A stretch of DNA of 63,477 bases, counting the filler, from Sluysia triapertura (Eukaryota): NCBI GenBank assembly GCA_046118255.1. It is 5 parts of 5 records of this genome, joined end to end, with 100 filler letters (N's around TTAATTAATTAA, not from the genome) between each part and the next. Parts side by side here need not be neighbours in the genome. Positions count along the whole stretch, not along the records: positions 41,181 to 52,383 come from JBJNIA010187392.1; positions 52,484 to 63,477 come from JBJNIA010190419.1; 3 more parts are not named here. One strand, written 5' to 3'. Position numbers and translations under genes: made by a program. Of the stretch, positions 32,201 through 59,769 are shown in pieces (within the stretch, counting starts at the first letter, position 1; every line of letters begins with the position of its first letter). The notes below the pieces were generated by a model. The model saw only the letters and a program-made list of their open reading frames with translations, made no database searches and had not been told where the DNA came from.

Positions 32201-33180
32201 TACCATTTTGTACCAATAAAACCATTTGTAGATAAATTGTTCTTTAATGTATTATTAATTGTTGTTCATCGTTTTATCGAATTATAAATGGAATTTAATG
32301 CCTTCTTGAGAACGTTTAAGATAATCATATTTGTCGTTTAATTCAGTATTTAATCTAAGAATTAGTTTCGTTAAGGTTTGTATTGATGAGAAATTTAAAC
32401 TTGCCTCTCATTCATATTTAATATAAAAAAATAACACGAAATAACAGATTAACACATAATTTCTCATCGACGAGAACTGTCAGTTGTTAAATTGCATTGG
32501 TCGTTGATTAAAAGGTTGGTTTTCGTCGTTAATAAAATAAATTTCGTCTTTACTCTTTATAAACATATTTATATAACATCGCATCTTAAATTCATATCTT
32601 TCAAAATGAGTTTAAAGGACAGATAATATAACAAGTAAAATTATAAAAACTAATAAATATTATTTGAAGTTCAGAAAGCGTTTATAAACACAGGTTTGTC
32701 AAACAGTATTTATTAAATAATTCACATGCTCAAATGAATAACTCGAGTTTTTTTATTTGAAAGTTTAACTTTCACTTCAATATTAGTATTACAAAATTCG
32801 AAAGATTCTGATTGAACGGTTTGTTCACCACAATGTTAGTATTGATCATAACTAAAAAACTCTATTACCTTTTGACATTTTACGATTTTTCCAAAAATTT
32901 TATCTCTGCATTACATAACAAACTCAAAACTCTAAATATGAAACTTTTACGAATTATTACACGTTTAATAATAAATCATTCCAATGTTTTAAGGTCTAAT
33001 ATTGATATAAAAATGGGTATAAGCACTATATTGGATATAAAAAGAGACGAATCAAGTTACAAATTCTATTAGCTCTTTTTAGAATTTAATAAAGTTTACA
33101 TTCTAGTAAAAATTCATAAAAACTCAAATATATTTAAAAAGTATTTACAGAAACATAAGCACAGTAAATATTCACTTTTT

Positions 33181-34212
33181 TTAATGGCGATCTCGATGTT
33201 TATCATGGTCTTTGCGATCAGAACGTTTCCTGTGATTATCAAATGGAGAATGCTTAATTCGATCGTCACGCCCTCGATCTCTATCTCGATCACGCTCTCT
33301 GTTAGTTTCAACTGGCGAATGTTTAATACGATCTTCACGATCTCGTTTACTTTCTCGATGTTTACGACGTTCTTTTCTATCACGTTCTTCTGATCGTTTT
33401 CTTCGTTTTCCATGAGATCTGTAGAAACACAATAAATGAAAATAATTAATTAACCTAGACTTAGATCTTCTTCTACCAGAATCTTGATCATGCTTATGTT
33501 CTTGATCTTCTAACTCTTTTTTAATAGCTTTTTCTTTTTCCTGTCGAGCCAATTCAGCTGCCTCTGCTTCACGTTGAGCTTCTTTTTCAAATTCTGCTAA
33601 CATCGCTTCTTGTAAATCTTCATCTAATATCGAAATTCTTGGTTCCAATAAATTCTGTTCCTCCAAAATAAATCGTTTCTGAATTCTTGGTAATATAATA
33701 GAACATACACGATCATCTCGCAATAGTTCCTCAATAAATTCATCCATATGAACTAAAGCAAAACTACCATCTTCGCGCTGCCGACGTAATTTTGAATAAT
33801 CGTTATACAATGTCTCCAGATATTTATATATGTCTATAGAATTACCAGTTAAGCGTAAATAAATAGCCCCTAATGCTCGTGCATATCTAATTAAAAAAAC
33901 GTATTTAAATAGCTGTACTTACTTAAAATCATTTTGCCTGATAAATTCTATCACAATATCTTTTTCTGGTTGAATCTGTAATAATTTTTGCACAAGACAT
34001 AAAAATGGAGTTGGTACATTCGTAGCCCCATAAACTCCACCAATGTACCTTAATTCACAAGATTTATCCACAAGCAATTCTGCATTTAATCCAAAACAAT
34101 CTTCTTTCCAATAACGGCTATCATAAATTCGATATCGAATTACTTTCTCTATTAAATTTTGTGGATTTGTACTGTGTATTGTATGAGCATCTCGTACCGT
34201 AGGGTTTGCCAT
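33181..34212 (-). CDS. PRPF38A: Pre-mRNA splicing factor 38A; exons 34212-33923, 33886-33455, 33418-33181
   Basis: MANPTVRDAHTIHSTNPQNLIEKVIRYRIYDSRYWKEDCFGL...QIQPEKDIV...FKYARALGAIYLRLTG...HMDEFIEELL, then an RS/RD tail. Two GT-AG introns of 36 nt. Confidence 0.97.
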
Positions 34213-38665: not shown

Positions 38666-39720
38666 ATGAATTTTCAATCAGTATATCTTCTCAATTGGCT
38701 AACAAATAGGGACCTTCAAATGTTTGCATACTGAAATATTTTGATTTTACAATAAATTTGGACATTCACACTTATTTTATCAGTGATTATAAAAGTTTCA
38801 ACCTGATTTTTTTGCAACAAATATTAAAAAAGAGATTTTTAGTAAATATTTATGATATTGAAAGATTCAGACAATTCCATCAATGAAATTAAAAAAGCAG
38901 TTCTCGAATTAATGCAAAAGTCTTGTGATTTCATCGAAAATATGCTGAAATTCATAATAAAAAGATTAATTTAATGAAACGAGTAAAATTACTTCAACCC
39001 GAAAATTCTATGTTAAATGATAATTTATTTACAATTGAGAAGTCAGTCGATACTGTGAATAAAATATGTTATGATATGGAAAGTTTGAGCAAAGAGTTAG
39101 AGAAAAAGCAAACTGAAAATGAGCGATTTAATTCATTAATTAGATTTATTTATGAATCGACTGATAAAAATTCAGCTAACTATAATGAAACACCTATATC
39201 AATTGATCAAGGCCTTTTACAAAATGTTATCAAAATCGATTTCATAGTACCGCACCTAATGCAAATTCATTTCGAAATAATCATCAATATTCTCGTGGGA
39301 ATATTAAAGAAAAAGAAGGTGATAATAATTTGCGTCTTTTTAAATCTGCATTGTGCATGTATGGATCTTGAGCTACAGGTCAATGTATCAAGAATGGTAA
39401 ATTTTGTCCATATGCTCACGAATTGAATAAGTTAGGATCAATTCCTGGTGTCAAATCAATCAATCTTACGTGCTCACAAATTCATGAATTAGTATTTAGC
39501 TTAACAACGCAGAAACATTATCATAACCTTCATAATCCATTAATACCAATTACTGATATCGAAGAAGATCCTAAAATTTATGGTCGTAACACTTGATTTA
39601 TTTTAAGGTAAATAACTATTATAATTTTAATTATAATTATAATTCCAATTATAATTATATTTTAAATTTTAGAAATCATTTGGGGAACATGGCGTACCGA
39701 AACATAAACTTTGAGTCATC
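38666..39720 (+). pseudogene. Decayed gene with a coiled-coil and an Unkempt-type CCCH zinc finger
   Basis: 39330-39435 reads LRLFKSALCMYGS*ATGQCIKNGKFCPYAHELNKL (C-x9-C-x6-C-x3-H with KNG). It has an in-frame stop, frameshifts and a GT-AG intron-like tract at 39608-39671. Confidence 0.6.
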
Positions 39721-41180: not shown

Positions 41181-42629
41181 AAGTTATTATTTAGCATTAA
41201 GTGTGAATTTTATAAGTTTATACGTTGATTTTATAAGTTTAAGTTTGAATTTCTATACGTTTTTTTACTCGTTTTCTAAGTAATTTTGATAGGATTTTCA
41301 TAAGTTTAAGGATTTAAGTCTGAATTATATTGATATTTTGATATTTAAGTTAGTTAAAATTTAGTCTAAGTTGTTCATATTTGCATTTTTAAGAATTAAG
41401 TCTATGTTTTATTACATATTTTGTGATTATTCTAAGTTCCCATTAAGTTTAAGCTATTAAATTGTGGATTTTATTAAGTTTAAGTGTCATATTTTGAATT
41501 TTTAAGTCATAAGTGTAAGTTTTATTGCATATTTTTGGTAATTAAGTTAAGTTTTCATTAAGTTTCCCCATTAAGTATTTGATAAGTTTTAGCTGATTTT
41601 CATAAGTCTTCATTTATGTTTAAGTAAGAATTTATAAGTTTATTAAGTTTTTTGAAGTTAATTTGACAAGTCTTTACGATTTTTATAAGTTTAACATTAA
41701 GTTACAAAAGTTGACAGTTATTTTAAGTCGTTTTATAAGAATTTCATTAAGTTTTCATTGCATTTGTTTAGTTTTATTTAATTATTTGAATTTGCATAAG
41801 TTTTAATTAAGTTTTACCCCTAATTTTGATAAAAGTTAAGTTTATAAGTAAGATTTTTCTACGATTTTATCGAATTGAAGTATTATTTTGAATTTTACCT
41901 CAGTTGTTTATAAGTTTTCTTGATTTAATAAGTAAAATTTATAAGTTTTCTGATATTTTGATAAGTTTTCTAAGATATTTGTATGATTTTTCTACGATTT
42001 TGAATTTTGTTAAGGTTTCTGATATTTCGATAAGTTTTCTGTACTATTTTTAACATTACCCATTAAGTTGTACCTTAATTTTGATTATAAGTTTAAGTTT
42101 TACAGTTTATTTCATAAGTTACACAAGTTTTAAGTTTGATTTCAACTCTATTTTATTGTCATTAAGTTTAAATATATTGATAAAAGTTTCCCTGATTAAG
42201 TTTTATAAGATTTTGATTTATATTTGTTGTTATTTTCCAAGTTTAATTGAATTTCCAAAGTTTTCATGATTTAAGTTTAATTATAAGTTTATTTAAAGTT
42301 TGTTATTAAGTTTGACTTTACTGATTGAAGCTTCCTTGATTAAGTTGTATAAGACTTTGATTTATATTTGTTGATATTTTCCAAGTTTAATTGAATATCT
42401 AAGTTTAAATATCTAAGTTTAAGATATTTGATTTCGATTTGAATTTTTATCCCATTAAATTTGTATTGAAGTTATTAAGTTTTGATATTTGACTAAGTTT
42501 ATCTTTATTTTGATAAGTTATAAGTTTATATTTAAGTTTTTAAGTCTTCAAAATTGACACACGAATTTTAATTGAATTTACTAAGATTAAAAAAATTCTA
42601 GAAGAAATCACTCCAAACAAACTAATAAG

Positions 42630-43720
42630 ATGTCTTTACCTATAGAAACATTTAGAGACTATGCATCAATGTGCTAAAGATATTAGGCCTAAAGATATTT
42701 GAAGAACTCTATTACTTTCTTTTTGAGTATGATAGTATTGCAGAGGCAAATGGCTGGACTGAAATGGAAAAGATTAAGCGTATACAAAATTACTTAACTG
42801 GAGTTGCAATCCAGACTTATAAGGAGATAGATAACGATTATAAGCAAAAATGGCAAGAGTTTGTAAATGCCTTCACTGAAGAAATAGCTTTCGACGATAT
42901 AGGTAAGTATTATATTAGGATGCTCAATACATTAAAACAAAAGAGAAAGGAAACTGCATATGAATTTGTTTGCGTATTAAAGTCTTTAGTAGTTAGAGCT
43001 AAAATTCCTAATGATAAAAAGGAAAGTGTTTTAATTGATAAGTTAAAAAATGCCTGCGCTCAGAGTTAAGAGCTTATGTAGGTCTAATTGATGATTTACC
43101 CTTTAGAAATATTGTTAAAAAATTAAGGGTATCGAGAAATATGGAGCCGAAGAAAAAGATAGTATAAGTTACGTTAGTGATAACGAAGATAATTATAAAA
43201 ATAGAAATTGAGTCTCCAAGATTTGAGCGTAAGAACTTTAATTTTAATGATGGATATGATAATCATTTAGATTATAGAGCAAATAGTTATAGTAATACTA
43301 ATCCTAATTTTAGAGAAAATAATTCTAATTACAGAGGCAATGATTTTAACAGATGAAATAATTTTAGAACGAAAAGAGCTCCAAGGTATGATGATACTCA
43401 TGGAAGTAGAAATAATTTTAGAGAAGATAACTTTCCAGCTTCTAGAAATAATAATAATTATGGTTTTAGAAGTAATAATAAAAGTTCAGGCTTTAGTGGT
43501 TACGAACAAAGACCTGCACCGCGTTGGCCAAGTTCGGCTGGTGAATATGTTGATCGACAAAATAATAGTAGTAACACTAGAAAAAGGAGTCCTACTAAAT
43601 TTAATGATAATTATAACGTTGAGGTTCAGACAAACGTAGAAGGGAATTTAATATTTAGTAACTGTGGTAGCAAGGTCACTTTGCTAGAAATTGTAGGAAG
43701 TTAAGGGCTGATACTTTTAA
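42630..43720 (+). pseudogene. Retrotransposon gag (frameshifted)
   Basis: FLFEYDSIAEANGWTEMEKIKRIQNYLTGVAIQTY...WQEFVNAF is a capsid signature. An N/R/G-rich linker follows, then the knuckle remnant NCG..QGHFARNCR at about 43660-43700. Confidence 0.8.
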
Positions 43721-45745: not shown

Positions 45746-46540
45746 TAATGAAGATAGTTCCGAGCCAAAATCTAATAAAATAAGGATTAAGGATAGAATG
45801 TTATTTAATAACATATTACCTCCTTTTGTGCTAACTTCTAAAATAATGTCGGATATATCAACACATTCTTCAGAAGATTATTTTAAATTCTTCCTTTGGT
45901 TAAAATTAATTAAACTATTAATTTTAATGTAGTTTATACTTCGAAATTAGGTAGTAAAATAAAAACATGAGCTAAGCAAGACACAAGACAAGCATTGGAT
46001 TATATGACTTGTGTATCAGTACTTGCGCAATCATTACATAGGAAAAATAAACTTGATACTAAACGAGATTTAGGTACTAACAATAAAAATATCACAATGA
46101 AGAAATTAATCAAGCAATCAATCTAATTCCAACTAATATTAAATATAGTTTAATATTACGATTATACAAAATCCTGCTTTTTATTTCTCATATTACTCTA
46201 TCCATATAATGATCTTTATACTTTTCACTCTGCTTTTGACCAATCTTACGATTGGAGCTATTAGATTCAATCTATTTTTAACACGACAGCGTAAACATGC
46301 TCTAGAAGTTTAGGAAAAGTATATTCTTCGTTTAAATAAACGGCCGGTGGAAGTGGCATCACTATTAACCTGGTCTTAATTACTCGAAAATATACAATAT
46401 CTTTTCGTAGCATCACCGAAAAATACGTTAATAATTTTGGGAGTTTGTTAATTTTCCATTAAGTTTTATTAAATTCATTTAATTCCACTTAATTCCTTTT
46501 ATGATATTCATTTTTATATCTCTTTAATTTCGTTTCAGTT

Positions 46541-46998
46541 ATGAGCTTTTATCGCTGCTCATTCTACCTTAGGCTTCTACGCAAATATGAAGCTTGTGTG
46601 ACAACTTGCACCCATCGCTTCCATTTAAGGTGTATCTTTTTTCTGTATGATAATGCGCCTACTGATTATCCTTCTTGTCCCTTAAGTAGATCAACCATTA
46701 CGTCTTGCAAAATTTTATACAAAAATCGATATAAACACCAATATATACAGTTCAAATTTCATCTTCATCATCTATGACACTTACTTCATTTTCTATTGCT
46801 GTTTCTCAACCTTCTGATAAAACTTGCCTTCATTCAACTTCCACTTCTAATCCGCAATTTATTAAGCCACCTGCTTCAAACCCTTCTGGCCTCACAAAAT
46901 CTCAAAAGCGACATAGGCGGAGGAGAGAGTTGAAACGTTTCTACAAGGCCAATGGTCTTTATAAAAACGAAGGAATAATAAACCGAATCCTTTCTTGA
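46541..46998 (+). pseudogene. Accessory RING-H2 protein with Arg-rich tail, copy A (degenerate, one frameshift)
   Basis: CSFY...TCTHRFHLRC...SCPLSR, then GLTKSQKRHRRRRELKRFYK. Homologous to 55946-56393. Confidence 0.75.
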
Positions 46999-47166
46999 AA
47001 TACACTGGTATCTTCTAATTTTCTCTTTAAATTACGTATTTAGTTTACGTATAAATGATAGTTTATTAATAAAAATAATTTACCCTTATCAATTTTTGTG
47101 TTGCTTGTATTTTATTTTGTAATTATGTTTTTATTTTATTTTTATGTATATATCATGTAATTCTAG

Positions 47167-48168
47167 ATGTCACAACCCAATGGCAAAGTCTTTTTTCAAA
47201 CTAAAGCTTTTTATGGAGGCATTGACCGCTTTTCTAAACATAATGTCCCTTCTACTTCATTTTTAAATTCTAAATCAACCTCTAACCCTCTTAAATCTGA
47301 AATTAATGAAAATTTTGCCACACATCTTTTTAGTTTATCGTTTACTTTCCCATCAGTTACTATTAATGAATTACTATGTTTTCCAACAAATCACAGTTTT
47401 ATCATTTTGGCAGCCTCACTAGGTGTTCTCAAAATTACTTTGACAATTAATTCTTCCCATCTTCTTTTTCGTCTTTGAAACTTGACAATGTTTACCATTC
47501 TCATACTGACGAATATCCCACAACATTTGCAGCGCTTTTTCCTTTCCTCCCTAGGAAGTCGAAATCGTGTCTTAATCCTTTACATGACACCGATGTACAA
47601 CATTTCGACGCATAGTAGGAATATTTAACTTTCACCCATATTTCCGTTCTTACCCATTTTTGAGGAGAACAAATTAATCCTTTTGGCATTTCACCACCTC
47701 TTAGATGTCAGTTATGAACATCAAATTATTCCGTTAGGTTTCATGTCCTACCATAGGAAATTTCATTCTATTGATATCATAAGACCACGAGTTCGCGTCC
47801 AACATTTTTACAAAGAAATACACGGACTAAACGAACAAAATCTAACATCGGCTAAAGACATTGAAGACATTAAGAGCTTTTGGCTCGCATCACTGTACGA
47901 CAAATTCTTGGTTTGTCTCTATCCCGAATTAGTTGTAAAAACATTAAATATTCCTTATGGCTGGTTGAGAGGAATAGTAAACCTCACCAACACCCATCCC
48001 GTGTCTTTTTCATCTGCCGATCCAATTATAAGGGGGAAACAAGTTTTAAAGTTACTATATCCATCTTTACCTAAAATGTCTTGTATGGATCTCATTCAGA
48101 ACTCGATTTTATTGTGTCGAGATACTAATGCTAAATTTAATTTATGCTGTGAGTCCTTACAATCTTAG
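47167..48168 (+). pseudogene. Accessory ORF-X, copy A (unknown function, disrupted)
   Basis: Colinear protein-level similarity to 56508-57450 across its full length. Confidence 0.75.
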
Positions 48169-48654
48169 ACTTATTCACTCAAGGGCTAAGTTGTAAGCAG
48201 TATTTTAGAAGAAATTAGATGGAGGTATAAGTAGGCTTATGTTAAATCAATTATGTTTTTGGGAAAAATGTGTTTATGCGATGCTAATTTTGGCTCTTTT
48301 AAGAAGTTATTAAATGTTAATCAAAAAATGCTCAAACTACAGTTAAAAAACTTTTATTATGTTTCATTTAAATACAAATGTTATTTTAAGTTATATTTTT
48401 CAACCGTATTTCAAAAACGGTAAGCCTTAAATACAAATCTATTCTTTAACTATAAATTACGTCCGATTAAAATCGGCGACCTTATTTTAGCAATAAATAA
48501 AAAATCTTTTTAAAAGGATATATTAACGAATTGACAAACGCATAATAATAATTTAGTTAACTTTTTACAAAGAATATTTAATATAAATAATAATTTTATC
48601 TAGATTAATGTATAATCTTTAATGTACATGTTATTAAATTATTCCTCACCTCTT

Positions 48655-48666
48655 AAAAAGGGGGGA
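48655..48666 (+). other. Polypurine tract, copy A
   Basis: AAAAAGGGGGGA about 490 bp after the last ORF. A canonical TG LTR start is not evident. Confidence 0.55.
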
Positions 48667-49893
48667 TAAAAATAATTAAAAAATAAATTAAGTATAGAAT
48701 TTTCAATTAATTAAAAATGATTCTAAAACTTATGCAATTCAAACTAACGGTTAACAGAATAAAATTTGTCAAAGAAATTATAATTCATGGATTGACTGAT
48801 TTGTCGAGAAAGTCGAATACGTAATTCGAATATTGAATCTTTTAAAATACGTTTGATAAAGCTGCGATAATTTTTGCATAACAATTCTTGTTGTTGAGCG
48901 TTTATAAAGAACTTGTGATTACAATGTTGTGTGATTTTTGTGAACATTTCATGTTTATATATATTTTTAATTTGTCATTGACCGAATAAAAGTTAATTTA
49001 TTAAAATAAAAGAATTTTGGAAATAATATTGATAATGATTTTAAAAATAATAATTGATAAAATATGATAATAATAAAAACAACAATAATAAAATAATAAT
49101 AATAATAATAATACCAATAATAATTAGGTTAACTATTTTTAACTAAATTATTTTAAAAAATCAAATAAAACTATTTTAGATATAAAAATCGATTATTTTA
49201 TTCATCTATATACACATAAAACTGTACATATTATTTATTTTTAGATTTTCAGATACTTGACATAACTTTCCCATACGGAAAAATTTGTCTCTAATTTTAA
49301 AATAATTATTATTATTAACATATAATTCAAAGTCAGAATCACTATCTAATAAAGTGATGACGGGTATGTCGTTATCACAACCAAAAAATTCATTATCATT
49401 TAAGTTTTTTCCCAATACACCGTAAATGTCATCGTCGCTGTCAACTAGATCGACATTTGGCGAATTCCTTTCTGCTTCTTGATGATTGTAACTTTCTCCG
49501 GCTGTTTGGTTCAGACTTTCTCTCAGCTTTGGTAGATTTTGTTAGGCGTTGATGTGACTTCGAAGATATTTTGGTGTTATGTCTCGATGTATTATTTGTA
49601 TGTTGTTTGTGAGGTGAAAAAGGTATAGGCTTATCAATGTGAGGAAATTCTGTGCAGATTGTGTCTTTGTTAGAAGATATAGATGAGGAAAAGAGGAAGA
49701 AAGCAAAATTAAAGGAGGAATAACTTTTGAATTATCAATTTGTGGCAAAAAGGAATTGTCCTTACTTTGAATTAAATCAAATAATAAGATGAAGTCTTTG
49801 GCGTGTTGTAGACTAAGTCTAAGTTGCGCAATCTAATAATCCTACAGAAGTTCATGAACAACATAACTTTTGTATCGAAGGAGTATTTAATAA

Positions 49894-50660
49894 GTGTTTG
49901 GTTTCAAATTGTCTAATAATGAATACCGATTTCGAAGTGTATACAGACTTACCGAGTCTGGGTCAACGGAAGCCATCATAGTGTTACCAGATAATTTAAA
50001 ATATATTGCATTAAAAAATGTTAGACACAGACTGCTCCTGTTAATTATTTTCGAGAAACTTTTTTTGTTCAATTTGAGAAATGCTCTGATTATGACTTAG
50101 TAGACGTATTAATGATCTACCTACCTAATAGTAAGTGTTCTATTGATTTAATGTTCGAATTAACTAATTTAAATCACAAAGAGATGTTAATTATGTTTAA
50201 TCGTGATAAATATTTTATATTTGACCATTTAGCCAAAGATATTATGCGAACGTATGATCTAGTATCTTATGTACTTGATGTAAACATAATACCAAATAAA
50301 CTGCCTTTTAAAAAATTATACAGTTATAAAAGTGACCAAATGGAACAAGAATGCGTGTTAGAATTGATTAATCAATTAATTTTAAAATTGATTAATTTTG
50401 AAAAATAAGCTCTACGAGTATTGCCTTATACGAAAACATTCTGTAATTGAAGTCATGCAATACTTCCCTCAAACCACACGCACATTTGGCACTGTAGTAT
50501 GGGTAAATATAATTCCATTTATACGTAACCGAGAATATTCCATAGCTAGTTCTTCCATTTCTGACATAACATTAGACATATTAGTTGCAAGGGTTCAATT
50601 TGAAACTAAAGCCATGTACTAAAGAAAAAGATTATGTTCGTCATATTTGTGTAATTTTCT
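49894..50660 (+). pseudogene. NDOR1: NDOR1-like diflavin reductase FAD-binding domain fragment
   Basis: DVLMIYLPNS...LVSYVLDVNIIP...LYEYCLIRKHSVIEVMQYFPQT...IPFIRNREYSIASS...LDILVARVQFETK..*RKRLCSSYL parallels NDOR1. Frameshifts and an in-frame stop are present. Confidence 0.8.
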
Positions 50661-52139
50661 GACATGCTTAATATTTTGTTACTCGTTGTGAAATAAATGA
50701 AATAAGTTTTTATTTTGTTATTTGCTGTTCATTTAAAGAATTAATCTTAGGCCTTAAGCCTACTGTTCATTCGAGTCTAAAACAATGAGTAAGGACCTTA
50801 AGTCACATTTTAGCAAATTAATTGTAATTATTTTAAATAATTTCTTTTTATTAAGAATTTTTCAATTAATCACAACCCTAACACTAATATTGATGATAAT
50901 GTTAAAGATTAAAGATCAAAGATGTACATGAATGTAAGAAATAGAATTAATAAAATTTTTTAATTAAAATGAATAAAACAAAATAAAAATTAATGGATTT
51001 TAATAATGCATTTTTAATGAAATATTGAAATATTAATAGATTTATTTTATTAATAAAGTAATGGATCTTTAATGGATTTTCAATTAATAATAGTAACTAA
51101 TGAATATCAATTAATAATGAACAAAACTAATGGATTTTTATCAATGAAATTTTATTTTAATGAATAATGGATTTTTATCACCAAAAAACTAATGGATTTT
51201 TAAAAATAAATTTTAACTAATTGTTTTACAAGGTATATAATATTAATATTAGAACTCACACAATTAGAGAGAGAACCAGTTAAAAAGAAAGTTATTCATT
51301 TCTGCATCAAGTGGTCGTCAAGACATTACATCCGTAATACCACATAAATAAAGTTTCAGTGAACAAAATTATACTTCGTTTCGTATATTTAAGTAGTAAG
51401 TTAATTTACTTCTATTTTTATGTAGGGATTACAAAATCTAAATTCTAATCTTTAAAGTTAGTTCTTAAATCGAATTATAAAATCATTGAATTATAAAAAT
51501 AAAGCCTCAAAAACTTTATTTGCTTTTGTTGTTATTATTATTATTGTTAATATCACAAGCATCATTAACATTTGTATTTGAACATTTTCGTAAATTATAA
51601 ACTAAACTATGTATTGATAAAAATTCGTGTGTTATTTTTTGTATATTAATATTAAATAAGAGCTTCGTCAGTTAAGAATTAATAGACCCTTATGTGAGGA
51701 GATTATAAAGTTCTGTAGGTGCGCCAACATAAGACGTTCACTACAGGCGGACCCAATTAAAAAATTAAATTTATTATGCAAGAAAAACCTTAGTAATAGT
51801 ATACAACAGATTCGTATATCTACTCGAGCTCTACGTCAGCATTTGCATCATAAAGTTATCTTAATCTTAAATATAGGTGTTGTATATTCACTAGCCATTC
51901 AAAAACAATTAACATAGAATAAATGAAAATTCTATCCTCCAGTTAAGAATATGTTTAAAGATGAAGTTACAAGTAATCTAGTCTTAGAATTCGATGTGCT
52001 TTATCAAATGATTCCAAAAGCAATCAAAGACGGCTCAATTTGAGTGCAATAGAATACACTAGTTTAATACTTATTAAGCTGTTAGGGTACTTAAGAGTTA
52101 GGGTATATAAAATATTTTGTTAAAAAATTGAATTAAGAA

Positions 52140-52383
52140 TAAAAACTATTAATAATAATCATAATTATTGTTGGGATTGCCCAACTGTGGATCTGGAGAT
52201 GAATGAAAACATATAAAATTAGGGGAAAACATTATTGGAATAAGAATCATGAGAGTAAAAACATCTATAATAATGGAAAAGGAGAATTCATAAGTGAACT
52301 CAAAACGTTTATAAAATGGTTCGTTTGAGAATAAGAACCTTAAAACATTTTTCATTAGAAAATTGGGTGTGAAAAATAGAAAA
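52140..52383. repeat. Third, internally deleted copy of the 35.5-37.6 kb repeat family
   Basis: CCAACTGTGGATCTGGAGA block (also at about 36648) joined to the GTTTGAGAATAAGAA.CTTAAAACATTTTTCATTAGAAAATT block (also at about 37418). Confidence 0.8.
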
Positions 52384-52483
52384 NNNNNNNNNNNNNNNNN
52401 NNNNNNNNNNNNNNNNNNNNNNNNNNNTTAATTAATTAANNNNNNNNNNNNNNNNNNNNNNNNNNNNNNNNNNNNNNNNNNNN
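52384..52483. other. Artificial contig spacer
   Basis: N-TTAATTAATTAA-N. Confidence 0.97.
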
Positions 52484-54199
52484 TTCAAATAATTGAACCT
52501 TTTCAAATGTAATTAATTTTGCTTTGGTTCTTTCTCGAACCTTTTCTTCTTTAATTATGCAGATTTTAAATCAATAAATATAATTCAAATTTTTATTACA
52601 CAAAATTTAACTTTTACAAAGATGCGATTAGTATTATAATAATATAAAGATTTTTACAGAGATGCGATTAGTATTATAATATAAAAATCAAATAATAACA
52701 AAATTTTACAAGGGATTATTTTGTATGATAATCCTAATTTTAATGAATTTTTTAAATAGATTTTTCTTAGTTTCTCTTATAAGAAACTTTTAATTTAATA
52801 ATGATTTTGAGTGTGATTTTACTTGGGCAATTATTAAAAATTGCCAAAAACTTATATAAATAGACTAACAATTAAAATAATCAAGATCTGGTGCCACAAT
52901 AATGTTGATGCCACAAGAGCTGAAACTGTTGTCACAATAATTGAAGAACTTGGTACAAAAATCTCGTTGTTCACGTTACTGGAAAATGGCTAATGAAGAA
53001 GCTCGAAAAATAATTTGTAAGAGATGCTGTCTTGCAAAAATAATTTATAAAAATGTTGTGTTGATCTTGATTATGTTAAGCCTATTTATACAATTTTTTG
53101 CTTATTAAAACAAAAAATTTTTATTTTTAATTAAATGAAAATATGAATAATTTTAACAATTTTCACTAATATAGAAATTTTAATAATTTAGAATATAAAA
53201 ATAATAAATTTTTATTAAAATAATTTTTAATTAAATGATTTATTAAAATATGAATAATTTTAACAGTTTTCATTAATATAAAAATTTTAATAATATAATA
53301 AAAATTATTTAACAAACAATAATACACTTACATTATTATTTGGACGATAATTTCATAAATTAATTTTTTAAATTTCTAATCAATTTTAATAAATTTCCAC
53401 GTAAACTTTAAAATAATAAAATTTTTAACTAAATTATTGATAAATGTTTAACTAAATTATAAATTATTTATAAATTGAAATAAATTGTATTGATAACTAT
53501 TATTTATGAATTAATTGATAAAATTAGCTTTTAAGCTTTACATTATTTATGAATTAATTGATAAAAATGAATTAATTGATAAAATTAGCAATTGATAAAA
53601 TTAGCTTTTAAACTTTACACTATTATATAAAATTAGGATTTTCTAAAACTTAACATTAATAATTACTTTTGCATGGAGTCTTGACTTGTATATTTTTCTG
53701 TAACACTATTGTCGGAACCAAAGTCGATCGGAATTTTCTTTCTCGCGTCAAATTTTGGATTCTTCGTGTCAAATCTTTAATTCTGAAAAATTACCTAAAA
53801 TTTCCTCTATTTATATAAAATTTGCTTACCTCCATTTTTGTTTGTTTATTTTGATCTATTTCCTTTTTAATGTGTTAAAACAAATTTTAAAATTCATTAT
53901 ATTTATTTATTTATTATTATTAATTTGTTTTATTTTGTTAATTTATCTTAGTTATTTTATTCTAAATATATTATTAATTTATTTTACTTTATATAATAAA
54001 AATATTCATTTAAAATTACACAATACAATGCTATAAATTATCAAATATCAAATACTAATTTAAAATTATAAAATACAATAAAAATACAAATAACCATATA
54101 AATGTAGTTCATAATCAAATGGTTTATTAATTATCATAGCCAAAGTTCATGATTGAATATTGAATATGACACCAACACAATGAAGTAAAAGTTAAAATA

Positions 54200-54710
54200 T
54201 TGACTAAAAACATTCATGCCAAATTTGCATGTTTGAAACCTGCCAGACTTAACTTTAGCTCATGGGTTATATGCGAAAATTATATTGATAGTGAATTGAG
54301 ATATCCAGTCACGGTTTGCTCAGATATTTTACCTGTCGAGGATAGACGTATTATAGTGAGATTCCGTCACTCATCAAAATACTTGAATTTTGCATTTAAA
54401 GGAACAAGAAAACATTTAACGATATTGGAGATATTACGGAATGATCCAGCATTCGTGATATTAATTGTGGCGGCAATACTGTTCGTAATTGCTTTAGCTC
54501 TAGTGGTATTGGTTATTATTATGTTTGTTTCGAATAGATGTCGATACTCATGCTAACCACATAACAATAATAATGACGATGACGACGCGTACACAGTTCC
54601 GCACAGAAACAATTACGCTCCTCCTCCAGGTATGCCAATAATTCCACCTCCAATTTATGAATATGCTACAAATAATCAAATCCCACTCATATACGGAGAC
54701 TGGCAAATGA
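54200..54710 (+). pseudogene. Single-pass membrane protein with Pro-rich cytoplasmic tail (PPxY)
   Basis: Hydrophobic run AFVILIVAAILFVIALALVVLVIIMFV. Past one TAA the frame continues ...YAPPPGMPIIPPPIYEY. Confidence 0.6.
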
Positions 54711-55702
54711 CTCAAGTAAAATATACAATTCTGATATGTATCTATCAAGCGCAAATTATTTATCAGAAAACAATACACCTAGAATAATTTTGGTAGCCAC
54801 TCAGAAAGATATTTATGCTAAGATATTAACATACAAAATTAAATTATTTTCCGTTAAAATAAAATGTTGTATAATGGATTGGTGCGAAATTGAAACAAGA
54901 GCAAGTAAACAGGATTTCTATTAGTTTATCTTGCATTGATCTTGCCGAATACCAACTAATTAGCGTAATAATAACTATAGAACTAGAATATGACCCTCAG
55001 AGTGATTCCAGAACTATCTTGATACGGTATTACAATATAAGAACTAAACCATTTGTTTTCCGACAATCTTCAACAGTAATTGAGTTTCCAATGATCATAT
55101 ATCGCTATCTCGGAAATGTTATACGTATTCATAACCCGTTATACAATAACACGTTGATAATTGCGTACGAACTATCTGACGGTTTACGTTACGGAATGAT
55201 ATTGCCTAATGATACTGTTCGTCTATATCACATCGCGACTAATAGACTCATGTTTATCAAATTTTGGATATTGAGAAAAACAGAATTACATGATGTAAAA
55301 GGATTTTGGCCAGCAATAAGATATCACGATATACAACTGCCAATTATAGATAAGTACGAAAATGACACGAAATCACAAAAAACGTCCAAGAATGATAACG
55401 CTACAAATATATTTCATGATAGGAATAAGAATGTTAATTCTAATACAACCAATAGGAACAGAAGTACAAATGCGAATATCACCAGTATAATTATGACTGT
55501 AAGTAAGGAAAATATTGAGTACCCAATTATAGTGAAATCCAACAATAATTTGATCATAACTATAAACTACATTTTAATATTAATTTCTCTAGTAACATTA
55601 ATAATTAATTTTGTTATTCAAAAATTTTACATGTTTATTAGGCAAAGAGCCCATTTTTTCATATATGTTTTCAATACATATTGCATAATTGACCACATGT
55701 AA
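54707..55702 (+). pseudogene. Probable type I membrane glycoprotein (frameshifted N-terminus)
   Basis: Beta-rich ectodomain, stalk with NAT/NTT/NRS/NIT sequons, and C-terminal hydrophobic LIITINYILILISLVTLIINFVI. Confidence 0.5.
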
Positions 55703-55945
55703 TGGCATTCCCAATCATTTTGGGTCATATGTAATATTAAAATCATAATTAAAATTAATTTTGTAAATATATTAAGGATCGTGCATATGACTGTATGTGA
55801 TGGTTTACTATCATCTCGAGTCATGCACTAACTAAAATATTACTTAAAATTTTTTTTATATAAGTTTAAGATTTTTTAATTTTTCTAATATTATTTATTT
55901 ATTATCTTATTATACATTTTTATTTTTTAGTTAGAACAATCAGCA

Positions 55946-56393
55946 ATGTCTTTTTCCACATGTGCCATTTGTCTCCGTTCTCTTCACAAATACTTTTCTA
56001 AAACTTCCCCTTGCTTTCACCGCTTTCATTTCTTTTGTTTCTACCATCTCTTCGAATCCTCTCCATCACCTTTACCAAGTTGCCCCTTATGCAGAGCCAC
56101 TATTAATAAGTGCGACATTTATTACAAACGCTCCTTCCGACGGTCGTACGAATTAACAGACGACTCGGAAGAGCCCGGTATTGATGTATATCAACCGGCA
56201 TCGCCTATAAAGGAAAAGAGCCTTAGTAAGAATGGATGGGTAAGACCTCCCCCCTAACTTCTCATCAGGTTTATCCAAATCACAAAGACTCAACAGACGA
56301 AGGCGTCAATTAAAACATTTTTATAAGGAAAAGGAAACAAATATGTCTAAAGCTTCGAAACCTATTAATACCTTTTTAAAAAGAAAGAATTAG
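55946..56393 (+). CDS. Accessory RING-H2 protein with Arg-rich tail, copy B
   Basis: Complete C3H2C3 motif CAIC...PCFHRFHFFC...CPLCR. A 1-nt shift in the C-run at about 56250 continues into GLSKSQRLNRRRRQLKHFYK. Confidence 0.8.
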
Positions 56394-56507
56394 TTCTTCT
56401 TAACTTATTTTATTAGATTATTATATGATTTTAAAAATTGACAAAAATAGTTTACTTATTTAATTTATTTTTCTTGTATAATTTTTATTTTCCTTCCTTT
56501 TCTTTAG

Positions 56508-57937
56508 TCACATCCAAGCAAAATTACTTGACCAACAAAAATTTTTTTATGTATTTATCGACCGATACTGCCATGTAAGTATTACCCCTGCTTTTTTCTG
56601 TGACTCGGTCTCGACACCCAACACCTTAAAATCGGAACTTAATATCAATCTTGTAACCCATATATTTTCATTAAAATCCGAATCTCCATTTGTTTCGCTT
56701 GATGGTCTATCACAAGTCCCAGAAACTACTTAGTCGTTGCCAGAGGTGTTGTAAAAGTCACTTTAATAGACAACGGCGCGCCATTTCTGACTCGTGTTCA
56801 TGGCTTCACTTCGTTACACATTACTGATTTGGACAAGAATTGTAACGTGATAATTGAGGCAACAGAATACCCACTTCAATCGCACTGCTTTTCCATTTGC
56901 TTCCATCTACCTTCCAATTTTTTCTTCCAAATTTGTATAAAAATGATACAATAAACTTGGCACGCTGGCAGATCGGGACGTCTTTTACTCATGTTTCCCC
57001 GATGACTGCTTACGACGAAGATCGTCTAGTCTTTGTGGCTTATTCCTACACCCACGATTTTCTTAATCGCCCGCACTTAACTCAATTGTCTTGTACCCCT
57101 TATTCGAAATAGTTTCATACTGATATCAACATTAAACCTCGTCTCCGAATAAAGAATTTTTTGAGAGATCCAGGAGATCTCCGAGGCTAAGGATATTGAT
57201 GATGTCCGCCCCTTCTTACTGGGTCATCTGCACGATAAAATCATGGTGTCTTTGAACCCATGTTTTATCATTAAAAGCCTCGATTTGCCTTTTGGTTGGC
57301 TTAAGGGAGTCATTAACTTAACCAATCATAACCTACTTTCTTATACAACTGACGTTGCCATTTTACGTGGACGGCAAACCTTTAGATTATTATATCCCGT
57401 AACTGCTCACGGATGGCTTTTGAGTTGGTTTCACTTTTGGATCTAATCCGTGAGAGGGATTTGTCCCTCTTCCCTAACTGCTCTTTTTCTCCCTCTTCAC
57501 TCTTTTCTAATTCTAATACTACTAATAATATTTTCATGGCATCATCAACATCATCATCAGTATCAGTACCAACACCATCCTTAGTACCTGCGTCATCATC
57601 AACATCTATATTTCCATCATCAGTGACACCTATGTCGACAGCACCAACTACATCATCGTCAGCGAACCCCGCCAAACCTTCTGAGCCTCGACCGACCAAA
57701 CAACCTACTACTCGGTATCCATCACCAAGTCCTACCCATATACCATATGGCGAGAATACGTCCTTTAAACCTTGGAAGAAAGGACGATACCAATCCATGA
57801 CCAGCCTATCCGTCACCCTGGGACGACGACAGCGATGTCGATTTAGACAATTGATATGTTACTTTAACAGTTTCATGATGATTATATTCATGAATACTAT
57901 ATTCACTTTTTATTCACCTTTTATTATATTATCATGA
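56508..57937 (+). pseudogene. Accessory ORF-X, copy B, with Ser/Thr/Pro-rich tail
   Basis: Shares LKSE.N.N..TH.FSL, FTH.S..T, AKDI.D, P.GWL.G..NLTN and RG.Q...LLYP with copy A. Several frameshifts and stops. Confidence 0.75.
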
Positions 57938-59769
57938 TTTAACATTCTATTGACTTAGGTGATTCGATTCGAGACGAATATTCCCTGACGGGGAAGTAAA
58001 TGTAAATATTTAAATCATGTAAATTTAATTTGTAAATATTTAATAAATTACAATAATAATCATGTAAATTTAATTTGTAACGTAAATTTAATTTGTAAAT
58101 ATTTAATAAATTATAAATAATAAAATAAATACTTGGTCCATTATTGTTTATAATATATCAATGATGTTTCAAGTGTAATCGAATCATATGGATTTAAATA
58201 CCATATATATACTGATGATTATTATTATTATCAGCACAAAAAGGCAAACTTGCGAAAATAAAACATAATGTTAAAGAGAAAAATCAAAGGAAAATCAATT
58301 AGTTGAGAAGTATCCATTGATCAAATTTTTCTAAGATGCGATTAGACTATTTAGCTATTAAACATTTTGTCTGTGGTTATTGTGTAAAACATTTTTGCAC
58401 AGATTTCTTTGACAAATTAATCCTATTAATTTAAAAACAATTTGTATAAATTAACTTGTTGATACAAAATGAATTTTTATGATTATCAAAGAGAATTGTT
58501 TGATGTTTTTTGTCTTGCTAATTTAATCTATTAATAAGCAAAAGAAAGGGAATTGAAGAATAAAGTTCAGATGAAAATAAAGTTTGAATAAAGTTCAGCG
58601 ACTAAAAAATTTCAATAATTAAGAATTAATACACAAACAATATTATCACAAACAATAACAATATTATCAGCTATCATTTATTAAAATTACGTCAGTTACA
58701 TATTTATTATGATTATATTTTATTTATTTTATTACAAATTTATTATGACTTATGGTATTTTATTTTAAATATTATAGAATATTATTAATTTAAAAAAGTA
58801 TTTATAAAAATTCATTATTAAATATTTTAATATTACTTATCGACGTAAATAAATATTTGCTTATTTCAAATTTCAAAAAATGTGCTATTCTAAAAATATC
58901 TTTTCTTGTTTAAACATATCAATGAAAAAAATTAATAAACAAGATGGCGAAGATGAATATATAAACATTGGAATTTACAAGCAAAGGCACAATTTTTTGG
59001 ATAATAATTGTAACAATATCTTCGACCATATTCTTGCAAAAACAATTTCATGTCACAGTAAGGCTATTTGTTAATTTTTTTATTTATTTTTAAAATTAAA
59101 TCGTAACAGCATAAGAGTTAATTCTTAAAGCCAAAATCATTATTACTATTATAATTGTTTATAATTTTACTTAGTGTTTTACTTTGTAGATAATACATGT
59201 TTAAGATAGTAATAATTTTGTTTTTCTTTAATTAGTTAAATTACTGAATATACCTTGTCAGACCATAACAGGCTGACTTAAAATTTCATACTTTTTAAGT
59301 TACCTGCACTATAGAACTTGTAATTTGTTCGTCCAGTAATTTTCGCAGTTACTTCATTATATTTTCTTGCTTATTAAAATCCTAACTCGAATGCCTTCAT
59401 TCTGATATAAGCTGTATCAATTAGGTGTACTCACCTTCGGAAATTTTTCTGTAAGTTTAGATTAAGCTTCTACAAGATAAAATACTTGCATAAGTGTAAC
59501 GAATAAAGTTAGAAAGATAAAATTAAAATTACAACGTTTATTGCAATTAATATATTAAAGAATTTGTTCTTAAGTAGAATATTTAGAGAAAGAAGAGTCA
59601 AAAGTCATGAAGTTTGATCATTTTGTAAAGGTAAGAATTAAAGAGCAAAATTAAAATCAATACGTTAGACAAGTAAAACCTAAATGATATTTTAAAATAG
59701 AGTAGAGCAACAAAACATACTAAATAATTCACCAGGAGCATACACACTAAGAAACAAATATACAAAATA

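Follow-up and report, generated by a model that had tools for sequence, protein, structure and literature searches.

Retroviruses and insect errantiviruses express env and accessory genes from spliced mRNAs, in which one 5' donor is joined to several 3' acceptors and, in some cases, the start codon comes from the 5' exon. The major donor of these elements is located downstream of the primer binding site, and their gag is translated from RNA that has not been spliced. Here, we describe a multi-lineage, gypsy-like long terminal repeat (LTR) retroelement of Sluysia triapertura (assembly GCA_046118255.1), two decayed members of which, copies A and B, lie in the window, i.e. the whole stretch of 63,477 nucleotides (nt) that was analysed. 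The gene content of the element, pieced together from several contigs, comprises gag, pol, a membrane-protein open reading frame (ORF), a RING finger ORF and a last ORF, termed ORF-X. In contrast to the retroviral and errantiviral arrangement, its candidate donor lies within the LTR, upstream of the primer binding site, and gag itself resembles a spliced exon. We propose, with a probability of roughly two in three, that a single LTR leader exon, which carries an ATG and ends two bases into a codon, is cis-spliced to acceptors in front of gag, RING and ORF-X.

The giant gypsy-like planarian elements Burro/GYPSM1 exceed 30 kb and carry BCL2, BIR and MATH domains; the available parts of their descriptions contain no splice map (PMC6431247, PMC8532177). 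They share with the present element a flatworm host (a likely assignment here), high copy number, a zinc-knuckle gag, ubiquitination-linked domains and accessory ORFs, but in Burro env stands between gag and pol within one giant ORF, whereas here the membrane ORF follows an integrase-like region (locus L065) and is itself followed by RING and ORF-X (PMC6431247, PMC8532177). A putative BCL2-like stretch follows gag, for which Pfam and PDB searches gave no match. In the bdelloid elements Juno and Vesta, a DEDDy exonuclease ORF3 stands behind pol, like the nuclease-type ORF-X here, and ORF3s are typically expressed from spliced messages; the catalytic residues of the Juno and Vesta ORF3 are intact, whereas those of ORF-X are replaced, and the present element further differs in a predicted AlkB-like fold ahead of the nuclease-type domain, in having two accessory ORFs and in its proposed shared LTR leader (PMC5408684). 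Among plant Ty1/copia elements, EVD combines splicing with premature termination, comparable to the internal 3' end formation proposed below (PMC5580714), and BARE keeps separate RNA pools in which the translated RNA is not reverse transcribable, as proposed here (PMC3735527). However, EVD splices around its protease region and BARE uses two promoters, whereas the gypsy-type element described here would use an LTR-to-gag intron that removes the primer binding site (PMC5580714, PMC3735527). Spliced leader (SL) operons of flatworms resemble the spacers of the element in their gaps of about 100 nt, U-rich tracts and AG acceptors (PMC12582326, PMC5832876, PMC8629364), but the AUG with which the flatworm SL terminates would be off-frame at the ATG-less sites discussed below (PMC12582326). 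As far as the available parts of these reports extend, precedents exist singly for spliced accessory ORFs, nuclease-type ORF3s, splice-coupled early termination and separate RNA pools (PMC5408684, PMC5580714, PMC3735527, PMC6431247). A coding LTR leader that also serves gag was not found in the open-access literature searched.

Acceptor-like sites and the ATG-less start of ORF-X

Relatives of the two copies were collected from the same genome. DNA searches gave at least 48 matches for copy B (40 of 574 candidates scored) and at least 45 for copy A (40 of 1692 scored), and a search with the RING protein of a third lineage gave at least 150 scored matches among 1826 candidates. The first 30 loci of each search and 40 more divergent ones were analysed and assigned to groups A, B, C and D, although for three loci the group by best hit differs from the group by DNA family. 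A quick RING tree (65 columns) separates A, B and C, with C nested inside the diverse group D. Acceptor rules were set group by group, and copies with less than 130 nt of upstream sequence were dropped.

The initial annotation had noted that the accessory ORFs start just behind a T-rich tract and an AG. All four sites are found where it had placed them, i.e. TTTCAG-TT-ATG (46541) and TTCTAG-ATG (47167) in copy A, and TTTTAG/CAG-CA-ATG (55946) and TTCTTTAG in copy B, where TTTTAG ends at 55930, the ATG of CAG-CA-ATG is at 55946 and TTCTTTAG ends at 56507. Its estimate of about 115–170 nt for the spacers between RING and ORF-X also holds, with 148 nt in copy A, counted from the family stop codon at 47016–47018 (168 nt if the premature stop is taken), and 114 nt in copy B. 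Across copies, an acceptor-like AG is kept before RING in 98/102 (A 16/18, B 17/17, C 27/28, D 38/39) and before ORF-X in 91/109 (A 19/23, B 23/25, C 17/24, D 32/37). A pattern that ignores the upstream bases places the AG at a fixed position in 17 of 18 B ORF-X copies, the contigs not being an independent set. For RING of copy B the site stands, but the conserved AG is the one at 55929–55930 (17/17) and not the CAG beside the ATG; the AG two bases before the ATG is the nearest AG in only 11/17. The last 40 nt before the acceptors contain 51–67% T. The branch-point-like word CTAAC occurs 40–85 nt upstream of RING in group D (21/38) and of ORF-X in groups C (14/17) and D (29/32), compared to 1.1, 0.3 and 1.4 in shuffled sequences. 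In the spacer between RING and ORF-X, AATAAA is present in 12/19 (A), 13/23 (B), 16/17 (C) and 24/32 (D) copies, against expected values of 1.5, 2.2, 4.0 and 6.7; it sits 50–110 nt before the AG in all four groups and is absent from copy B of the window itself. No enrichment of AATAAA was found before RING, in the spacer between env and RING. RING and ORF-X of groups A, C and D mostly carry an ATG of their own 0–27 nt past the AG, which for ORF-X occurs in all three frames. We consider splicing to the RING and ORF-X acceptors well supported, judged from sequence comparison, because the AG is conserved across four protein lineages with unalignable spacers. A sequencing run (X1), which behaves as DNA, was searched with copy B and with L068, and no GT..AG joint linking a donor to the acceptors, as a retro-copied spliced form would show, was among the 15 joints listed for each.

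In addition, a motif resembling TACAT...TA(A)GG recurs 60–125 nt before most acceptors in all groups. Hairpins are conserved between the membrane ORF and the RING tract (window 55700–55835 and 46340–46375); in copies of the B hairpin a paired G-C to A-T change occurs in the inner stem, and the structure is possibly an export or packaging element. A short frame opened by an ATG at 55787 overlaps the B hairpin (Table 1) and closes in the vicinity of a weak donor-like GT at 55864.

The start of B-type ORF-X sets the phase that any upstream exon would have to supply. Copy B had been read as beginning with SHP directly after the AG; this frame closes after 7 codons (7–44 across all 23 B copies), and the coding frame lies one base past the AG, where it reads xHIQAK. 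Third-position variation tracks frame +1 from the first codon onwards, with first and second positions held. The missing ATG, which had been considered a possible simple loss in a decayed copy, is a family trait, since it is absent in 22/23 family copies; the first downstream ATG is off-frame in 22/23, and L025 alone has its own ATG. Because B ORF-X is ATG-less, is coding from frame +1 and has its next ATG off-frame, its start, on this reading of the alignments, must be provided by an exon further upstream that leaves a codon open after the second base. The 3'-terminal AUG of an SL, which had been suggested as a start codon, would yield only the off-frame peptide of 7–44 codons in all 23 copies if joined at 56508.

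The same offset is found in front of gag. In B-like copies, a conserved stretch of about 35 codons stands ahead of the first conserved gag ATG and is in frame with it in 26/27; this extension begins one base past an AG in 25/27, and the other two copies have an ATG at that place. An SL-borne terminal AUG would therefore be off-frame here as well, the extension starting one base past the AG. The extension (L262–L291; window 42544–42632) is basic and is kept in three copies despite a mutated downstream ATG. A-type gag shows the same one-base offset, with the AG in 4/7 places; copy A has AA at 42550–42551 where relatives carry AG, and its frame is shifted. No conserved ATG was found between the primer binding site and gag in either A-type or B-like leaders. 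The region from primer binding site to gag measures about 1.5 kb in A-type copies, with T-rich AAGTTT repeats (window 41181–42540; L068 2060–3530), and only about 200 nt in B-like copies.

A candidate leader exon in the LTR

In both LTR types, a conserved GT lies about 255–270 nt past TATAAATA, with an ATG upstream of it. This putative donor is located inside the LTR, 450–620 nt upstream of the primer binding site and about 600 nt into the full LTR, and is missing from the truncated 3' LTR of copy B. An ATG open to the donor in phase 2 is present in 20/21 B-type LTRs, none having one in phases 0 or 1, and in 7/8 A-type LTRs, three of which also have one in phase 0. Over all loci examined, the B-type donor sites (n = 39) have an open ATG in phase 2 in 25, in phase 1 in 3 and in phase 0 in 0 cases, compared to 50, 27 and 35, respectively, at control GT sites (n = 383); phase 0 at B-type donors is mostly shut by a stop codon adjoining the donor. 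Two of the 12 examined 3' LTRs joined to B ORF-X reach the donor, both with a phase-2 ATG. The GT is also kept in 15 of 17 B-like 5' LTRs picked via the gag leader. A 20-nt A-type motif spanning ATG and donor occurs 96 times with divergent upstream flanks (reversed control, 0), a count that measures persistence rather than frequency, as the pattern selects for the ATG–donor island. The leader ATG was located by anchoring on the donor; a column-wise LTR scan did not reveal it. Host donors include GTATGT, GTATGA and GTAAAT, and the LTR donors are alike. At the B RING junction, frame +1 meets a stop codon directly after the AG in 17/17 copies (55932–55934 in copy B). Since an in-phase, element-encoded leader is present in the LTR, cis-splicing is favoured for the accessory genes. 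Of the earlier suggestion that these are resolved by cis- or SL trans-splicing, the splicing itself gains from the conserved AGs, and the start from a terminal SL AUG fails at B ORF-X, the single site for which it had been put forward. Another candidate donor, a phase-2 GT inside RING (16/19), was rejected; it is absent from the sub-lineage of the window, and G-ending codons are common in these ORFs.

Based on these observations, we propose the following hypothetical course of expression, in which (i) transcription starts in the 5' LTR and the unspliced RNA serves as the genome; (ii) the leader donor would be joined to alternative acceptors before gag, RING and ORF-X; (iii) the leader ATG would supply the start for Gag and B-type ORF-X; (iv) at the B RING acceptor, the leader would hit a stop at once, creating a tiny upstream ORF followed by re-initiation at the RING ATG 11–15 nt further on; and (v) the AATAAA of the spacer would end the RING mRNA, with the 3' end of the ORF-X mRNA formed in the LTR. 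In the A family, the leader ATG has a weak context, and leaky scanning would allow ribosomes to pass it and start at RING and ORF-X; such scanning must be assumed in groups A, C and most of D, where the leader frame would overlap the RING start. As the donor lies in the LTR, the gag-pol mRNA would lose U5 and the primer binding site, so that only unspliced RNA would be copied into DNA. Flatworm acceptors often serve both kinds of splicing (PMC12582326), and the AGs described here may therefore receive an SL as well. A broader version of this scheme remains tentative, and we give it slightly less than even odds: all proteins, Gag-Pol included, would be made from LTR-leader-spliced RNAs, an internal poly(A) site would be used between the accessory genes, splicing would sort translated from replicated pools, and the Arg-rich RING protein may act as a Rev-like switch for the unspliced genome.

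Several points weigh against the leader exon. The layout of the element was assembled from several contigs, none of which carries it completely, and copies within a group are related, so that the counts are not independent and overstate independence. An open phase-2 ATG lies within 260 nt of the donor in only 7 of the 17 B-like 5' LTRs and is lacking in 10/17, although the gag extension of this set is conserved and mostly has no ATG. LTR leaders of groups C and D were searched for and not found. In the LTRs read, the leader ATG is not the first one, as short ORFs lie upstream of it, and in groups A, C and most of D the leader frame would run over the RING ATG as an off-frame ORF of 10–18 codons. 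The evidence for A-type gag is thin (in-frame extension in 4/7, one with stops), and the acceptor of B-like gag is AAG, a weaker type seen in 1/10 host acceptors. Finally, CTAAC is absent upstream of the acceptors in groups A and B, and A ORF-X has no branch-point match, even the loose YTRAY occurring in 1/19 copies against 15.1 expected.

Host SL trans-splicing of a polycistronic element RNA, with cleavage at the AATAAA after RING and SL addition before ORF-X and likewise before RING, would fit the operon-like spacer between RING and ORF-X, which measures 114–148 nt in the window with AATAAA 50–110 nt before the AG. It is in this spacer only that a poly(A) signal, a branch point and an AG follow each other in a short gap, and the branch motif is strong in groups C and D; the spacer between env and RING lacks the AATAAA enrichment. 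The median operon gap of Schistosoma mansoni is 99 bp, and flatworm acceptors are often common to cis- and trans-splicing (PMC12582326). An ATG is present at most of the sites themselves, and a terminal AUG would be in frame with RING in 66/98 copies; at B ORF-X and the gag extension, however, this AUG is off-frame, and a leader of the required phase is borne by the element itself. A search for SL genes with one narrow pattern gave 17 matches versus 8 in the control and no repeated family, which is weak evidence as the host SL sequence is not in hand. Taken together, we regard SL resolution as unlikely. Even in a host that probably trans-splices, operon-like spacers in a mobile element are not in themselves a sign of SL use.

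A promoter inside the element, close to the hairpin that lies upstream of RING, combined with a short local intron, is likewise quite improbable. Under this explanation, a mini-exon of copy B (ATG 55787, GT 55864) would start ORF-X. Tiny introns of 36–46 nt are common in the host, its HSP60 gene has a 37-nt 5' intron-like stretch that ends directly at the ATG, and TATATAAG-like words lie 60–125 nt before several acceptors. The GT at the end of the mini-exon is kept in 14/17 B copies and phase 2 in 10/16; the remaining copies have phase 0 (4/16) or phase 1 (2/16), and the window's own sub-lineage is among these. A 12-nt repeat accounts for some of the 3n length changes, changes in the mini-frame alter amino acids yet keep the hairpin, and its donor GTTTAG is not among the host donors observed. 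As a start of ORF-X, the stretch 55787–55863 had seemed conserved in phase in 9/11 copies at first and was demoted to a rival after the fuller count of 10/16. No local donor is common to all groups, and the gag extension is left unexplained by this scenario. Still less credence is due to the view that the AGs are unused, in which re-initiation, internal entry or near-cognate starts on unspliced RNA would give access to the ORFs and the tracts would be neutral AT-rich spacer. The AT content of the spacers is indeed very high, most accessory ORFs begin with an ATG, and an Ile codon (ATT/ATC) lies 4 nt into B ORF-X, with ATG there in one copy. Against this, four lineages whose spacers cannot be aligned all hold the AG 0–27 nt before the start, CTAAC lies far above shuffles, the codon preceding the Ile is under coding constraint, and the LTR contains the donor island.

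The family bears on two open questions, namely how a single retroelement RNA can act as mRNA as well as genome and by what means giant invertebrate LTR elements express their additional ORFs, and it offers exact candidate junctions, with one LTR donor, three acceptors and matching phase. Should gag be a spliced exon, translated and replicated RNA would be separated by deletion of the primer binding site, a route that was not found in the open-access literature searched.

Element layout, proteins and host

On the 5' side of relatives, an LTR ending in CA or near it is followed by the primer binding site, the leader and gag; the primer binding site directly follows the LTR end in A-type and B-like copies. 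On the 3' side, ORF-X is followed by a polypurine tract and a TG-starting LTR of about 0.95–1.1 kb. Locus L065 shows the order integrase-like end, protease-like stretch, multi-membrane ORF, RING and ORF-X, the first three judged by eye; these three had no Pfam match, and the integrase-like end had no PDB match either. In L007, a reverse transcriptase fragment (PF00078, E = 1.3e-29) adjoins a RING fragment. The pol of the element is represented by these fragments, no contig carrying a full pol. The gag assignment is based on PF03732 (a second match at E = 0.039 besides that in Table 1) and zf-CCHC (E = 0.004, L068), all below curated cut-offs. Copy A is a deletion derivative without pol and without its 3' end; its internal deletion (joint at about 45995) is common to L068, and the joint is not at an AG. 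In copy B, everything before 54177 is missing, as is most of its LTR. At another locus (L008/L014; G000:C119295), two B-type 3' cassettes are inverted tail-to-tail and joined at the LTR start.

Table 1. Features of copies A and B in the window
Feature	Position	Strand	Remarks
gag upstream in-frame extension and putative acceptor	42544..42629	+	AG in 4/7 distinct A-type places
gag, copy A, broken by frameshifts and stops	42630..43700	+	PF03732 E=0.00097, below cut-off
Membrane-protein ORF 3' end, copy A, fused to gag-side region by deletion	45995..46317	+	
T-rich tract and CAG acceptor before RING (A)	46480..46538	+	16/18 copies, invariably 2 nt upstream of ATG
RING ORF, copy A, frameshifted; Arg-rich motif near 46903	46541..47018	+	RING Pfams E 0.002-0.01
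RING to ORF-X spacer (A), AATAAA 47068-47073, TAG acceptor	47019..47166	+	
ORF-X, copy A, own ATG directly after AG; broken, 3'-truncated	47167..48115	+	
Membrane-protein (env-like) ORF, copy B, 5'-truncated	54177..55702	+	no Pfam match
Conserved RNA hairpin upstream of RING tract (B)	55781..55828	+	z -3.16, 0/200 shuffles
T-rich tract and TAG acceptor before RING (B)	55880..55930	+	17/17 copies
RING ORF, copy B; early stop 56255; Arg-rich motif near 56289	55946..56393	+	PF13639 E=2.6e-7
RING to ORF-X spacer (B), TAG acceptor	56394..56507	+	
ORF-X, copy B, putative ATG-less exon read from second base; frameshifted here	56508..57854	+	
Polypurine tract and truncated 3' LTR, TG at 58001	57981..58130	+	

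The RING protein has a C3HC4/RING-H2-type finger (Pfam) and a C-terminal Arg-rich motif, which in its strict pattern is present in 39/108 copies and weakly resembles HIV Rev (PF00424, E = 0.06). For ORF-X, an alignment-based model predicts an N-terminal double-stranded beta-helix (predicted local distance difference test, pLDDT, mostly 60–94 for residues 1–140) and is of low confidence in the C-terminal half; a single-sequence fold (pLDDT 33) was not used. The N-domain model matches ALKBH6 (Z 10.8, root-mean-square deviation (rmsd) 4.5, 144 aligned) and ties with prolyl hydroxylases (Z 10.6–10.7, rmsd 3.1). The HxD...H iron ligands of AlkB are not present in residues 1–140, which contain one conserved His column (53) and no HxD. 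The C-terminal domain is related to RNase T-type exonucleases via the profile hits P0243, P0244 and P0246 (E 1e-8 to 5e-5), which carry PF00929 RNase_T; the hhalign value is 95.5%. The DEDD catalytic acids are absent from ORF-X, whose aligned copies have hydrophobic residues at the acidic positions of ExoI and ExoII, those of ExoI being V/I and Y/A/I/F. ORF-X is likely a non-catalytic nucleic-acid-binding protein, as far as the predicted folds indicate. A word-index search with ORF-X gave no match, and its Atlas matches were <0.9. P0243, P0244 and P0246 are encoded on ENA/JGI contigs of 5–17 kb, and their DEDD motif looks intact. The membrane ORF (window 54170–55702; L065, L062, L079) is organized as tandem units that contain signal-like segments in their interior; a PPPIY motif follows a transmembrane helix.

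The host is likely a flatworm, because an AT-rich COX1 in the assembly reads AAA as Asn and ATA as Ile. The best COX1 homologs have 54–57% identity, with one triclad among insects and no close relative found, and searches for PRP38 and COX1 homologs did not place the host below phylum level. Three fish-like mitochondrial contigs and one with flatworm code (L110–L113), as well as GC-rich contigs with bacterial-type enolase (L256, L261), are present in the assembly. Host enolase was not found behind UQCRB in the two loci read, which is uninformative. The window also contains a host PRP38 gene with two 36-nt introns (33178–34212, minus strand), and pieces of host genes with a FAD-binding domain (50025–50405; PF00667, E = 0.0002) and a BLOC1S2-like sequence (38929–39423; E = 0.004). 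In the host HSP60 gene (L161), the 37-nt stretch has the form GTAAG...AG and parallels the start of ORF-X in copy A.

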